64,000 nucleotides of DNA from Candidatus Omnitrophota bacterium (GCA_026387475.1 JAPLLN010000049.1:16556-80555), one strand, 5' to 3'; positions 56,774 to 64,000 are shown, counted from the stretch's first letter. Notes: generated from the letters alone by a model not told the origin. Program-made: numbers and translations.

Positions 56774-57153
56774 AAAACTGGTAGCCCTAATCGAAAACAG
56801 GTGGAACGAAATTGTATCCGAATTAGGACAACTATATCAGTTCAATGAGCTTTGCAGCTCGTTAACTATAAGTAATTAAACCGATTATATCAAATATGGA
56901 TACCAAGTCAATAAGGAAATCTTATAGCGGGTAAGAAAAGATGCTGCAAAGCGGAGCACAGGAGAGAATTTTAGCGGAAGATGAAGCACGATAAGAAGTT
57001 AGGGCAAAAACGGGCTATGTCGTTTATGTCGCAAATAACTGAAGGCACCGCAGGATTAGACTGCTTCTTATGATTTGAACTACTTTAGTAGGGTCTTAGC
57101 AGTGAGAGCCAATATATACAATTATATAAAAAGAGGTATTAGGAAAGAATGTT

Positions 57154-57768
57154 TTACTGTGCTTCTTCTACTGACATAGATAACGTTTTGATATTCGGGA
57201 GACCAATTCGGTTTAAATAAGAAAAAAATCGTTGTGAAAGGCGTTCGCGGAACAATTCATTTATCGTTGCAAGATAGAATTTTTTATATTTTTCCTCAAA
57301 ATAACAGAATGGAACTGAATAGTGTATTTTGAAATCAATGACCATTTCAGGAATCTGAAGAGCTACATCACTATGAAGAAATTGATATCGTGGGTCGCTA
57401 TTCTTTTTAATGAATTTCCACAAGTCGCTTCCAATATTTACGGGTTTGACTGAAAACAATTCTTTTAAGTGTTCGCCCTGTTTTACAAGTTCAGCTGGAA
57501 ATGCTGGAAGAATTAAAATATTGGGCAGGTATTGATTGAATTCGATTAACCCTTCGGGGGTAGGTTTCGCTACTTTCTTCTTTTCTCCTTCTTCAAGGTC
57601 ACAGTCTTGACTAATAACAATGACATAAGGAAATTTTAAGTCAACTTGGGCGCTACCTTTTCCAATAATATAAAATTGTACATCCCTTAATATGTCGCCC
57701 TGACATATCCTTTGACAATTGTGCTTCTCATAAACGGTTGTTATTTTGCTTTTCAACATATCCAACAA
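57154..57768 (-). CDS. Hypothetical protein (204 aa); third gene of the XRE-adjacent cassette.
   Basis: ORF track. No recognised domain (…CQGDILRDV…YVIVISQDCDLEEGE…). It overlaps the upstream 71-aa ORF by about 40 nt. Confidence 0.5.
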   Translation of the reverse strand: MLDMLKSKITTVYEKHNCQRICQGDILRDVQFYIIGKGSAQVDLKFPYVIVISQDCDLEEGEKKKVAKPTPEGLIEFNQYLPNILILPAFPAELVKQGEHLKELFSVKPVNIGSDLWKFIKKNSDPRYQFLHSDVALQIPEMVIDFKIHYSVPFCYFEEKYKKFYLATINELFRERLSQRFFSYLNRIGLPNIKTLSMSVEEAQ

Positions 57769-57943
57769 CGTGAGCAGTAGCTCTGCTTAAAATATATCTC
57801 CGATTTTTTACAGCATCAGCAAAATTACCGATAGCTACTTCTGCGCTTGCCTCGTTTCCTATATCTTGATGAACTGTTTGAGAAAAACCTGCTCCAGTCG
57901 TTGATTGAATAAAATAATTATAAGCAATCAGATAATCTTCCAT
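57728..57943 (-). CDS. Small hypothetical protein (71 aa); middle gene of the cassette.
   Basis: ORF track. Tightly packed: its start abuts the stop of the 252-aa gene at 57944. Confidence 0.4.
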   Translation of the reverse strand: MEDYLIAYNYFIQSTTGAGFSQTVHQDIGNEASAEVAIGNFADAVKNRRYILSRATAHVVGYVEKQNNNRL

Positions 57944-58702
57944 CTACTCTACCTCCATTATCTCTCTCAAGCCATCTTTTATGCTCTTTTCAAATAACCC
58001 ATCTGCTTCATCATTAAATCTCTCAATACAGTCAAAAACATTACTTTCGTTAAAATCCTGTGTAAAAAAATCAAAATCTAATATAAATTCTTTTCGTCTA
58101 ATTTTTGCAGGAAATTCACTATTAATAAAACCATACGTAAAATTGACTTTATAATCATCGTGATTTATTACAACTTGGCTCATCGCTCTCGATACATCTT
58201 CTTTATTATCGAGAAATTTGTTTACTACATAAGTTAATGAAGAATCAATGTGTCGCCCCCATTCAAATGGATTACCCGTTTCTAAACGTATTTGATTTAT
58301 ATATCTTAAACCTAATCGATTATATTTAGACGGTTTGTAGAGTTCAATAAAAGACGCGATTACTTTTTTAGTAATAGTATCGAACTCCGTAAAATGTTGA
58401 TATTTAAAAAACTCTATCGATATATGATTGAAGGTGAGGCTTATCTTTTTTGTCTTATTTTCATCAAAGAAAATGTAAATAGGGTATTCTTTTCTCTCAT
58501 CTATCATTTGAGCCTTATTTACAGTAGCTTTATATTCTACTAAATTATTTACTTCGCGTTTCGGAAAGACACCGCTTACTTTTGCAGTAAAGTTATCTGC
58601 ATTTTGCTTTAAAGCGTGTTCGGCTATCGGGGCAAAATCAATTCTGCAGATAACGTTCGTGAGGAAGTTTTTCTTATAAATTATTTTTTTAGGCTTGGGC
58701 AT
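57944..58702 (-). CDS. Hypothetical protein (252 aa); first gene of the cassette. N-terminus resembles what I recall of the uncharacterised TIGR04255 family (unverified).
   Basis: MPKPKKIIYKKNFLTNVICRIDFAPIAEHA.... A candidate promoter TTGATA-N15/16-TATAAT lies just upstream on the minus strand (around 58735–58765). Confidence 0.5.
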   Translation of the reverse strand: MPKPKKIIYKKNFLTNVICRIDFAPIAEHALKQNADNFTAKVSGVFPKREVNNLVEYKATVNKAQMIDERKEYPIYIFFDENKTKKISLTFNHISIEFFKYQHFTEFDTITKKVIASFIELYKPSKYNRLGLRYINQIRLETGNPFEWGRHIDSSLTYVVNKFLDNKEDVSRAMSQVVINHDDYKVNFTYGFINSEFPAKIRRKEFILDFDFFTQDFNESNVFDCIERFNDEADGLFEKSIKDGLREIMEVE

Positions 58703-58854
58703 CTTATTTAACTGGAAGTCACTACTATAGGAGAATTATAACATTGTAGAAGAAAATATCAATTAAAATTATTATGGCAAATAGGCTTGCCCGAAATAAT
58801 ACAGGGAACCACTGCAACATCTTTACTCTTTAGTTTTATTCCGGAGGATTCAAA

Positions 58855-59130
58855 CTATAAATTATTTTCAGCTTCTTTGATGAACCTGCTTAATGGTAGA
58901 TTTAACGCCATAGCTATTTTGTATCCGACACCAATCCCCATATCTACCTTGCCCAATTCGATTTTACTGACATAAGTGCGATGTATCTCCGCCATATCAG
59001 CAAAATTCTCTTGGGAAAGATTCAGCTTGTGGCGTCTTCTTCTAATAGCAATCCCAAGCTCCTGCCTGAATTTTTTAGTCTTGATTTGTCTTTCCATAAG
59101 GTTTATAATCTCATAATGTAGCCTATTCAT
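58855..59130 (-). CDS. XRE-family helix-turn-helix transcriptional regulator (91 aa).
   Basis: ...LGIAIRRRRHKLNLSQENFADMAEIHRTYVSKIELGKVDMGIGVGYKIAMALNLPLSRF... is the HTH_XRE pattern. Confidence 0.7.
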   Translation of the reverse strand: MNRLHYEIINLMERQIKTKKFRQELGIAIRRRRHKLNLSQENFADMAEIHRTYVSKIELGKVDMGIGVGYKIAMALNLPLSRFIKEAENNL

Positions 59131-62437: not shown

Positions 62438-62440
62438 ATT

Positions 62441-63079
62441 ATGAAAAAATTCTTATTATTGTGCTTATGTTTAGCATTGGCTTGGCAGATTAAAGTCTGT
62501 GCTTCGGCAGAAGAAACACCTAACTCAAAATATACAATAAACAAAATTGAATTAAGTATGAACGGCAATAATCATTTCTCTGGTAGAGCGATTTTTTACC
62601 CGCCCGAAAGAAAAGCAGTCTTTGAGATAATAAATAAAGGCAAAATGCCTTTTGATTTTAAGGACGCTCTCTTTTATGCTGTTACCTCTCTCCCCAACAA
62701 AGCGGTTTATCAACTTGAATATGATAAAACATATTATAAACAAAACCAACGAATAAGTTTGGTCAGTAACCCCGAAGATACTACCGCTATTCAATGTATT
62801 GTGCCAAGCAATTTCGTTTATGTCTCTGGGGCTTATATTAAACTGATTGATGGCACTAAGATTTATTTTGAGTATGAAGAATTGACTGCGTGGCAAAGAT
62901 TCTATAAGGGTTTACTAAAGACGATAGGGATTAGTAATCAAGACAAGTTCCCCAAAGACGAAGAAGGATGGAAAACACTTGCTACTTCTTCGGGCAAACG
63001 CTTCCGATATAAACAAGTAGATAAGGAAGAAAAGGACTGGTGGGAAAATCTTCCAAACAATGAAGGTAGTGCGAGGTAA
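62441..63079 (+). CDS. Secreted hypothetical protein (212 aa).
   Basis: RBS AAGGAG upstream. Signal peptide MKKFLLLCLCLALAWQIKVCASA. Confidence 0.55.
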   Translation: MKKFLLLCLCLALAWQIKVCASAEETPNSKYTINKIELSMNGNNHFSGRAIFYPPERKAVFEIINKGKMPFDFKDALFYAVTSLPNKAVYQLEYDKTYYKQNQRISLVSNPEDTTAIQCIVPSNFVYVSGAYIKLIDGTKIYFEYEELTAWQRFYKGLLKTIGISNQDKFPKDEEGWKTLATSSGKRFRYKQVDKEEKDWWENLPNNEGSAR

Positions 63080-63094
63080 CTAAAGGAGATTCCT

Positions 63095-63730
63095 ATGACT
63101 ATGGATATGAATATGGTCGCATTTATTTCGGGCGTGGTTTCTGTGATTTTGGGCTTCTTGGCTATTGCCTTATCTGTCATTTTTTACATTCAAGCAAAGG
63201 CGACAGAAAAAGAAACGGCAAAAACACTTGAACGTATTCAAGCACAAGCAGAAACTCTTAAAAGTATCACAGATAAACATATGACCCGATTGATTAGGCA
63301 CGCTACCGAGCAAAAGCCAATTGAAGAAATTCTAACAATAATCGCGACCGTAAAGAATCTCCCTGATACAAACCTACAATTGCATCTTCAACAGAGAGAA
63401 ATTGATGCCCTAACTGCTCAAGCAATCGAAGGCTACATTGGCTCTTATTACTACTCTGCAGTTACAAATTGTTTACTGCAATTTTATCTTCCTGATGCAA
63501 AAAGTTTTGATAGCACTAATCCGGGGCACGTTTTCACAAAAACAATGATTGATACGAGTCTCGGGGATTTTAATAACCTTAAAATCTTATTTGGACGAAT
63601 AAATCAAGCGCTAATCCAAAGCAGTCCAGTATATTCATACTATACTTCAGCAGAGCAATTTTGGTCTCCCCTTATTAAGGATTCTGCGACTTGTTTTGTA
63701 GACAAGGAGCAAGGAGGGGTTCAGGAATAA
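63095..63730 (+). CDS. Membrane-anchored hypothetical protein (211 aa).
   Basis: RBS AAGGAG upstream. N-terminal TM segment VAFISGVVSVILGFLAIALSVIFYI. Confidence 0.55.
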   Translation: MTMDMNMVAFISGVVSVILGFLAIALSVIFYIQAKATEKETAKTLERIQAQAETLKSITDKHMTRLIRHATEQKPIEEILTIIATVKNLPDTNLQLHLQQREIDALTAQAIEGYIGSYYYSAVTNCLLQFYLPDAKSFDSTNPGHVFTKTMIDTSLGDFNNLKILFGRINQALIQSSPVYSYYTSAEQFWSPLIKDSATCFVDKEQGGVQE

Positions 63731-64000
63731 ATGAAGGCGATTATCTATACAAGAGTCAGCACTGTCGAGCAAGCCGATAAAGGATACAGCCTCGAAGGGC
63801 AAGAAAAAGAATGCCGGAATTTTGCCCTCCTGAACGGATATCCTATTGATAAGGTCTTCGTTGAGCGGGGCGAAAGCGCAAAGACACAACAAAGGACAGA
63901 ACTTCAAAGACTCATCAAGTATTCCGTTGAGCACAAGAAAGAACTTTCCGTCCTTATCATTTGGAAATATGACCGTTTCGCCAGAAATCTCTCCGACCAA
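63731..64000 (+). CDS. Serine recombinase (resolvase/invertase-type catalytic domain), N-terminal 90 aa only; continues beyond the window.
   Basis: RBS AAGGAGGGG at 63712–63720, ATG at 63731. MKAIIYTRVSTVEQADKGYSLEGQEKECRNFALLNGYPIDKVFVERGESAKTQQRTELQRLIKY... matches the serine-recombinase N-terminal YxRVSTxxQ motif with the catalytic Ser. It is absent from the ORF track because it has no in-window stop. Confidence 0.75.
   Translation, partial: MKAIIYTRVSTVEQADKGYSLEGQEKECRNFALLNGYPIDKVFVERGESAKTQQRTELQRLIKYSVEHKKELSVLIIWKYDRFARNLSDQ

Follow-up and report, generated by a model that had tools for sequence, protein, structure and literature searches.

The stretch analysed here, 64,000 nucleotides (nt) from a Candidatus Omnitrophota bacterium (GCA_026387475.1, JAPLLN010000049.1:16556-80555; hereafter the window), carries on its minus strand a cassette of three tightly packed genes, A, B and C, at 57154-58702. 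The cassette resembles a toxin-antitoxin (TA) or defence-type module, built from new components in a new arrangement of three parts. We propose, at what we judge to be an even chance, that it is an autonomous mobile three-gene conflict module, TA-like or acting by abortive infection, in which B and C form an antitoxin/toxin-like core and A acts as a sensor or adaptor. The evidence lies in the conservation of the three genes as a unit in bacteria and archaea, the toxin-type fold predicted for C, and the membership of A in a family that heads other three-gene cassettes with unrelated partners.

The cassette is embedded in an AT-rich island that also holds a recombinase gene, but it appears not to be functionally tied to that island. 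The initial annotation of the window had described a small XRE-type regulator beside a compact set of unfamiliar genes in a mobile island, and had suggested a defence or TA module. The foreign region, the conserved and coupled gene unit and a toxin-type predicted fold support that interpretation, whereas the regulator architecture and the link to the recombinase did not survive. All the open reading frames (ORFs) that it named were recovered with their coordinates, the cassette and the XRE gene lying on the minus strand.

Organisation of the cassette

57944-58702, minus strand: gene A, TIGR04255 protein, 252 amino acids (aa)
57728-57943, minus strand: gene B, 71 aa, with a GGAGG ribosome-binding site in front
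57154-57759, minus strand: gene C, 201 aa (204 aa if translation began at an upstream TTG, 57768)
58735-58762, minus strand: sigma-70-type promoter-like site, a consensus match only

The TAG stop codon of A is followed directly by the ATG of B, with no overlap, while the 3' end of B overlaps the start of C by 32 nt; the overlapping stop and start codons reported initially are therefore found between B and C, and A and B merely abut. The third gene had been read as 204 aa. That ORF is present (57154-57768), but the most likely start is the ATG at 57759, because the resulting 201-aa protein is identical to a database protein (P0001) and its homologues have a conserved N-terminus, MLKSKI. The promoter-like site (58762-58735) consists of TTGATA, a 16-nt spacer and TATAAT with a TG extension, matches the consensus at 11 of 12 positions and lies 33 nt upstream of the ATG of A.

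None of the three products, which had not been recognised from the sequence at the outset, matched a characterised housekeeping family. A, B and C gave no match to a defence model of PADLOC-DB v2.0.0 at E values up to 1, and the literature searched contained no mention of TIGR04255, CHP04255 or IPR026349. The suggestion of an undescribed system is upheld to this extent, with no PADLOC v2 model and nothing found in that literature.

Conservation and distribution of the A-B-C unit

Clustered at 90% identity, C has 119 homologues and A has 87, many of them on common contigs. A profile scan with one genome per species gave 28 loci. A lies directly upstream of C at 26 of these, in the order A-B-C, and the two exceptions are a locus truncated by a contig end and one (L011) with B and C but without A. 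The compact cassette first seen in the window is thus a conserved, horizontally scattered and tightly coupled unit. A and C are typically 140-198 nt apart, and the gap holds a called ORF of 50-72 aa everywhere except at L024, where no B was called and the start called for the C ORF lies further upstream. At the loci with a called B (27 distinct sequences), its start abuts or overlaps the stop of A and its end overlaps the start of C by about 14-35 nt. Pairwise identities of A and C co-vary (Mantel r 0.715, reached by 0 of 5000 permutations), and therefore the unit has been inherited and transferred together.

The genome loci span at least 12 phyla and two domains. Bacterial hosts belong to the Desulfobacterota, Spirochaetota, Elusimicrobiota, FCPU426, Actinomycetota, Planctomycetota, Chloroflexota, Gammaproteobacteria, Hydrogenedentota, Nitrospirota and the Candidate Phyla Radiation (CPR), and archaeal hosts to the Methanosarcinales, Methanoperedens, ANME-2, Nanoarchaeota and Methanobrevibacter. 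Two viral contigs in IMG/VR carry the cassette, one of them directly after an endolysin gene with CHAP and peptidoglycan-binding domains. In the cultured bacterium Methylocystis iwaonis SD4 it is found on a 31.5-kb plasmid (NZ_CP143318.1, at 29547-31075), directly after a resolvase gene and an abortive-infection gene (AbiJ_NTD3/Abi_C); a tblastn search of 72,556 plasmids with two C proteins returned this copy only.

No Pfam family recurs among the 149 nearest neighbour genes. Most of these are core genes, and a few encode IS91 transposases or integrases. PADLOC matches among them are sparse: mad2 for three neighbours, and mad3, mad8, AriA, QatD and a TnpB/Cas12f-like protein once each. One locus (L003) has an HTH_19 gene followed by an RVT_1 reverse transcriptase gene (1201-2403) about 5 kb upstream of its A-B-C cassette, a pair that may be a retron- or DRT-type element. 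Several copies, archaeal ones among them, appear to be decaying in one gene while the others stay intact, through pseudogenisation or assembly error, with A fragmented beside intact B and C (L018 and L023) and C truncated or frameshifted beside intact A (L034-L037).

Gene C

C gave no match to Pfam, NCBIfam, PADLOC or PDB sequences, and its only library match was a weak one to a PHROG of unknown function. Its family is nevertheless large: a profile search of 1.84 billion cluster representatives returned 2,056 proteins at E ≤ 1e-3 and 958 at E ≤ 1e-10, and the best 150 are nearly all single-domain proteins of about 190-200 aa. Fusions of B to C or of C to other domains were considered and discarded, the longer C homologues having miscalled starts or unrelated tails. 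Fourteen residues are invariant (G22, D23, Q52, C54, D55, P86, R125, D143, F144, K145, E173, R178, R185 and P189, numbered on a 202-residue model). Conserved motifs are R-I-C-Q-G-D-I-L, S-Q-D-C-D-L, R-Y-H-F-L and I-D-F-K, with a further one reading N-E-L-F-R-E-x-L-S-Q-R-F-x-x-Y-L-x-R-I-G-L-P.

The AlphaFold2 model of C has a predicted local distance difference test score (pLDDT) of 91.2 and a predicted TM-score (pTM) of 0.85. When it was compared with the PDB by Foldseek, places 1-35 were all taken by MazF/PemK/EndoA toxins (E 1e-3 to 3e-2, probability 0.99-1.0, TM-score 0.57-0.69 when normalised to these targets of about 110 residues), and the type III toxin CptN came next. Because these are its top matches, C is predicted to have a MazF/PemK/CcdB-fold core into which a helical segment (about residues 90-125) is inserted, and to end in a conserved helix. 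In its predicted structure it has the SH3-like β-barrel by which MazF/PemK proteins are recognised, but it lacks their sequence similarity, and for the latter reason is not filed as a member of the MazF family.

Gene B

The small gene between A and C is real, because its frame is open at all 28 loci (no stops in 1728 codons) while the other two frames contain 110 and 232 stops; at a single locus the probability of an open frame arising by chance is 0.0005-0.04. B is a polar, rapidly evolving protein with a high content of Lys, Glu, Ser and Asp, whereas Leu makes up only 2.5% and Cys 0.1%. Two short motifs are kept, [DE]Y[FY] near the N-terminus and Y-x-K-T-x-x-K-x-K-h-h-G-Y-V near the C-terminus, and a charge-hydropathy plot places 22 of 27 B sequences on its disordered side. 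The guanine-plus-cytosine (GC) content of the B interval is low (0.23-0.50, mostly around 0.3), even in contigs with a GC content of 0.5-0.59 (L001-L037 and L054).

Gene A

The initial annotation had remarked on a resemblance of the first protein to TIGR04255, which proved correct and full-length: A matches NCBIfam TIGR04255.1 with an E value of 2.3e-29 and 102.9 bits against a membership cut-off of 30, its residues 9-250 aligning to positions 2-252 of the 252-position model. The database protein identical to A is named a TIGR04255 family protein. Y101, G131, L132, R133, D209, D211 and F237 are invariant across the TIGR04255 clades sampled. Hydrophobic and polar residues alternate along the strands in a way that should place R20, D22, R133, D209 and D211 on the sheet face pointing away from the helices.

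The predicted model of A (pLDDT 95.4) has the secondary-structure order β-α-β4-α, twice. Foldseek comparison with the PDB returned S-adenosylmethionine decarboxylase (AdoMetDC)/prozyme structures and many TATA-binding proteins (TBPs) at probabilities of 0.9-1.0, together with guanidino kinases, and comparison with BFVD returned TBPs of giant viruses and an unnamed viral protein (E 1e-7, TM-score 0.50/0.61). Two tandem TBP-like repeats are tentatively the best available label for this predicted fold. No PDB chain was matched by the sequence of A, and a search for sequence links to PDB or NCBIfam entries, the family model of A aside, yielded none for A or for the partner proteins of the other cassettes described below.

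Other TIGR04255-headed cassettes

More distant TIGR04255 genes also head tightly packed three-gene cassettes, in which the second and third genes are unrelated to B and C. The picture of swapped partners comes from about a dozen loci and is not a census. The types found were as follows.

L041 and a Methanobacteriales virus: second gene 160-173 aa, third gene 137-140 aa; the L041 copy adjoins an integrase gene
L038: second gene 206 aa, third gene 229 aa and weakly PIN-like (Pfam E 2e-4, below the cut-off); beside a TIR/ThsB cluster
A Rhizobium plasmid and seven Burkholderia P2-like phages: second gene 175-288 aa, third gene 218-236 aa, with the common motif G-L-T-C-[AS]-T
L058 and L061: other unrelated partners; an Eco29kI restriction-modification system lies beside L061

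The third genes of L041 and the Methanobacteriales virus share 38% identity and resemble HEPN proteins weakly (PADLOC RTas1465 E 1.4e-6; Pfam HEPN E 0.07). L048 (viral) and L060 (Blastocatellia) have a divergent C and an A from the clade of the Rhizobium and Burkholderia cassettes; their middle gene, of about 90-120 aa, is unlike B and has a common helical 'EAC' motif.

Several of these cassettes have conspicuous surroundings. Directly upstream of the one at L038 are four successive genes (1207-4300), three of them TIR/ThsB_TIR genes, flanked by transposases and forming a compact defence island. On the Rhizobium sp. CB3060 plasmid pCB3060_2 (L055), an operon of multiubiquitin, ThiF-type E1 and DUF6527 genes (2171-4468) stands directly upstream of the cassette, and IS110 and ISNCY transposases lie downstream. 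In Burkholderia phage vB_SBP21 and six relatives, P2-like phages of B. pseudomallei (L056), the cassette sits between the integrase and portal genes and adjoins a HigBA-like pair annotated as toxin and addiction-module antidote.

One conserved component with two variable ones is the pattern of a modular conflict system. TIGR04255 may be the conserved hub, a sensor or adaptor, of a large undescribed superfamily of three-gene conflict systems in bacteria, archaea and their viruses, with exchangeable second and third genes; the window cassette would be one type, serving for defence by abortive infection or as a TA system. We advance this broader reading tentatively and rate it somewhat below an even chance. 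It would cover third genes of the MazF-fold (more than 2,000 clusters at 50% identity, with no Pfam model), HEPN-like, PIN-like and Cys-motif types.

Proposed function and alternatives

In the mechanism that we propose, the three genes would be transcribed from their own putative promoter and their translation would be coupled; the basis for coupling is visible in the stop of A abutting the start of B and the end of B overlapping the start of C. C would be the effector, acting on RNA if it is MazF-like or on another essential target, as CcdB does. Such an attack is probable because C has a predicted MazF/CcdB-type core with an invariant polar site of its own (D23, C54, D55, R125, D143, K145 and E173), so that its chemistry would probably not be that of the Arg and Thr of MazF. 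B would be a labile, antitoxin-like inhibitor that binds C through its short conserved motifs, which are joined by a variable and mostly disordered linker, and synthesis of C would depend on translation of B by termination and reinitiation. A would be a conserved sensor, adaptor or substrate-binding subunit and not an antitoxin. It is the only part kept when the other two genes are swapped in other clades and, by analogy with the TBP-like domains of RnlA, which are needed to bind its RNA substrate, it might connect the effector to a trigger or to a nucleic-acid substrate. Neutralisation of C by A is unlikely, because B and C are intact without A at L011 and with a fragmented A at L018 and L023.

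Several observations weigh against this mechanism, beginning with the fold of C. Neither C nor 48 of its homologues matched Pfam even at E values up to 10, PDB sequence searches with C returned no MazF, and hhalign comparison of C with a five-sequence MazF alignment gave a probability of 0.6%; a sequence-level link between C and MazF was thus sought in Pfam, PDB and hhalign comparisons and not found. The structural match to MazF has a root-mean-square deviation of about 6 Å and covers about half of C. The catalytic Arg and Thr of MazF are not evidently kept: MazF has 'RP' before β2 and C seems to have 'PY' at that place. The same fold also includes CcdB, which is not an RNase. For B, the protein encoded in the window itself falls on the folded side of the charge-hydropathy plot, part of the conservation at the C-terminus is confounded because it overlaps MLKSKI of C in another frame, and no DNA-binding domain of the kind found in classical type II antitoxins, nor any other Pfam, NCBIfam, PADLOC or PHROG domain, was found. 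The TBP-like label for A rests on topology and local 3Di similarity, with global TM-scores against solved TBPs of only 0.25-0.41. The disrupted copies are in metagenome-assembled genomes and are possibly assembly errors. Co-occurrence with defence islands, by which the initial annotation had proposed to judge its suggestion, is weak for the window cassette type, whose neighbours are mostly housekeeping genes, and clearer for other TIGR04255 cassettes. Finally, the toxicity of C, its neutralisation and protection against phages are all inferred.

The scarcity of defence genes around the window cassette type would also suit a plain addiction module, in which B and C, with A as regulator, stabilise mobile DNA by post-segregational killing and have no anti-phage role. 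The TA-like coupling of the genes fits this equally, as do the scattered single copies near housekeeping genes, insertion sequence (IS) elements, integrases and resolvases, one of them on a plasmid. Copies after a phage lysis module and beside an AbiJ-type gene are less easily accommodated, as are the sister TIGR04255 cassettes in defence islands and in accessory slots of prophages, and we consider a purely addictive role unlikely. As many TA systems play both roles, it is not exclusive of the conflict module that we favour.

A more distinctly unlikely arrangement would make A the active enzyme or effector, acting through the invariant R133, D209 and D211 on the exposed side of its β-sheet, with B and C as regulator and partner and the MazF-like shape of C serving for binding or scaffolding instead of toxicity. 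A alone is conserved across all cassette variants, it has an invariant constellation of an Arg plus Asp-x-Asp, and its Foldseek matches include enzyme folds (AdoMetDC and guanidino kinases), while C has no recognisable MazF catalytic residues. This role for A has to contend with 14 invariant residues in C, including a polar cluster, which go beyond the needs of a scaffold, with the persistence of B and C where A is not intact, and with third genes that vary as swappable effectors typically do.

Two further possibilities are highly improbable. A small hypervariable ORF with conserved ends between two conserved proteins, one of them (C) with an invariant Cys/Asp/Lys site, recalls a cassette for a ribosomally synthesised and post-translationally modified peptide (RiPP), with B as precursor and A and C as modifying or processing proteins, but the cassette has no transporter, leader peptidase or recognisable RiPP recognition element, B is rich in Lys, Glu, Ser and Asp with 0.1% Cys, and the middle gene is an unrelated one of 90-120 aa in other A-C cassettes and of 160-288 aa in other clades. 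An ordinary housekeeping or niche-metabolic operon, AT-rich by chance, would agree with the core genes that flank many copies (ribosomal proteins, aconitase, tRNA synthetase), but hardly with a patchy presence in at least 12 phyla of two domains with different neighbours each time, with copies on plasmids and viral contigs, with apparently pseudogenised copies in some genomes or with the foreign composition in the window.

Comparison with known systems

The conflict module proposed here shares features with MazEF/PemIK (Kid-Kis) systems, namely the predicted core fold of C, which matches MazF/PemK/EndoA structures, the small upstream gene translationally coupled to C, and the character of a mobile, patchily distributed module. 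It differs from them in that C resembles MazF in neither sequence nor profile, has nearly double its length, contains a helical insertion and has other invariant residues, in that B has no AbrB or ribbon-helix-helix (RHH) DNA-binding domain, and in that a larger conserved gene, A, leads the operon. Small, adjacent, co-directional genes with overlapping frames (32 nt between B and C) are a feature shared with type II TA systems; a DNA-binding, autoregulating antitoxin was not found, B being free of domains in library scans and XRE not being conserved. A type III system with an RNA antitoxin (ToxIN/CptIN) was rejected, as there are no tandem repeats in 56700-59400 and the interval concerned is a conserved coding ORF.

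In tripartite TA systems (TAC, omega-epsilon-zeta and PaaR2-PaaA2-ParE2) a third protein controls a toxin-antitoxin pair within a three-gene operon. The operon organisation of A-B-C is similar, but A is neither a SecB-like chaperone nor an RHH or helix-turn-helix (HTH) repressor, and it is conserved while its partners are swapped, the reverse of the known tripartite systems. In the PanA/DUF4065 'Panacea' systems one conserved domain family is combined with many unrelated partner families. TIGR04255 is likewise a conserved family with many unrelated partner and effector families, but its fold is unrelated, its cassettes have three genes and an antitoxin function for A is disfavoured.

In RnlA the domain order is TBP1-TBP2-HEPN, and TBP1 is required for substrate binding (PMC8266594). 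By analogy, the window cassette would combine two TBP-like repeats, an RNase-type effector and a small inhibitor as the anti-phage toxin-antitoxin pairs RnlA-RnlB and LsoA-LsoB do, and some TIGR04255 cassettes have a weakly HEPN-like third gene. In contrast to RnlAB and LsoAB, the TBP-like unit is a separate protein without HEPN, the effector in the window has a predicted MazF fold and the gene order differs. RnlA was not among the top 50 Foldseek matches of A and shows no sequence similarity to it, and the relation is one of analogy, not membership. TBP-like domains are also fused to 1.5% of prokaryotic Schlafen nucleases, where they are proposed to be sensors (PMC13056530). A further parallel, drawn by description only, is GajC, a split MazF-like protein with a helical insertion and the validated effector of the Gabija variant Liu-DS1 (bioRxiv 10.64898/2025.12.08.692795). 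GajC resembles C as a MazF-like fold interrupted by inserted helices and is an abortive-infection effector, but its partner is a UvrD-type helicase (GajB) and no helicase accompanies C.

The AT-rich island and neighbouring genes

56900-64000, no strand: AT-rich foreign region, GC content 0.366 against 0.470 in the backbone
58855-59130, minus strand: XRE/HTH_3 regulator, 91 aa, or 80 aa from the ATG at 59097
59169-59960, plus strand: 263-aa protein with a predicted signal peptide and a weak Chlam_OMP match below the cut-off
60125-60994, plus strand: 289 aa, MerR-type HTH; opens a co-directional block ending in the recombinase
61080-63730, plus strand: five co-directional small or membrane proteins of 65, 231, 144, 212 and 211 aa, the last matching DUF7365
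63731-64000, plus strand: N-terminus of a large serine recombinase, with a Pfam Resolvase match

The drop in GC content seen initially from about 56.9 kb is confirmed by GC windows and tetranucleotide distances, and the region 56900-64000 is compositionally foreign. The backbone (1-56800) has a GC content of 0.470 (standard deviation 0.023 and minimum 0.404 over 110 two-kb windows) and the island (56901-64000) of 0.366, with all its 2-kb windows at 0.334-0.385 and the segment of XRE gene plus cassette lowest at 0.335. Tetranucleotide distance to the backbone is 0.368 for 57.5-62.5 kb and 0.12-0.21 for backbone windows. A milder dip at about 8000-10000 has the lowest backbone value (0.406 in a 2-kb window). 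At the GC transition there is a second promoter-like site (56884-56911, minus strand; TTGACT, 16 nt, TATAAT, TG extension, 11 of 12 matches), upstream of a gene for a 690-aa membrane protein with tetratricopeptide repeats (TPR). No tRNA genes, Rfam families or tandem repeats were found at the left edge of the island or in the cassette. The right end of the island lies beyond the 64-kb window, and the attachment sites and direct repeats that the initial annotation had hoped to find yielded no convincing candidate (tRNA, Rfam element or direct repeat) at the left edge.

The XRE gene had been placed immediately upstream of the cassette and read with it as one architecture. It is a real gene whose product matches Pfam HTH_3 (E 3e-10, 40.4 bits, gathering cut-off 23) and, in PADLOC-DB v2.0.0, only generic HTH or control-protein models, but it stands upstream of A at a distance of 152 nt and is not conserved as a member of the cassette. 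Where other copies have small ORFs upstream, these contain no HTH, no HTH family recurs among the 149 neighbours, and XRE as a conserved fourth gene was rejected. With no HTH gene conserved upstream at other loci, and with a promoter-like site belonging to the cassette itself, the proposed architecture of regulator plus cassette is not supported.

The 263-aa protein is possibly an outer-membrane β-barrel, judging from its sequence. Independent assemblies from other samples are 99.7-100% identical to the window and are all broken within its ORF, between 59282 and 59748; the ends of three contigs fall exactly at 59282, while two others start at 59719 and 59748. Because the independent assemblies all break there, this suggests a strain-variable stretch or a junction of two elements within the putative outer-membrane protein gene.

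The serine-recombinase N-terminus recognised initially at the right edge was verified, starting with the ATG at 63731 (MKAIIYTRVSTVEQ...) and matching Pfam Resolvase at E 2.1e-19 over the fragment in the window. In other samples, identical contigs run past the window and show a protein of at least 497 aa whose Resolvase (2e-36), Recombinase (3.3e-7) and zinc-ribbon (Zn_ribbon_recom, 4.9e-7) domains make it a large serine recombinase. The block that starts with the MerR-like gene and ends with the recombinase (60125-64000) was found as 2-10 kb contigs in no fewer than 15 assemblies of other sequencing runs. It has the appearance of a small integrative element of its own, with a GC content of 0.37 against 0.335 for the cassette. 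The idea that the cassette moves with this element had to be abandoned, as none of the island's proteins is found again where other copies of the cassette lie, and near two of those copies the recombinases are only about 26-27% identical to that of the window. The XRE gene and the recombinase element are therefore local neighbours and not parts of the system, neither being conserved at other loci.

Implications

TIGR04255 is a named but wholly uncharacterised family, and the C family (2,056 cluster representatives at E ≤ 1e-3) has no domain model. Seen together as a mobile three-gene unit, with swappable partners and a predicted fold of toxin type, these two blocks of 'hypothetical proteins' become a system that can be tested, for which the plasmid of Methylocystis iwaonis SD4 and the P2-like phages of Burkholderia offer culturable entry points. 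After RnlA and the bacterial Schlafens, it would be a third case in which TBP-like domains are associated with ribonuclease-type effectors. If the cassettes are active against phages, they would extend the defence and TA repertoires to archaea and CPR bacteria, in which few systems are known.

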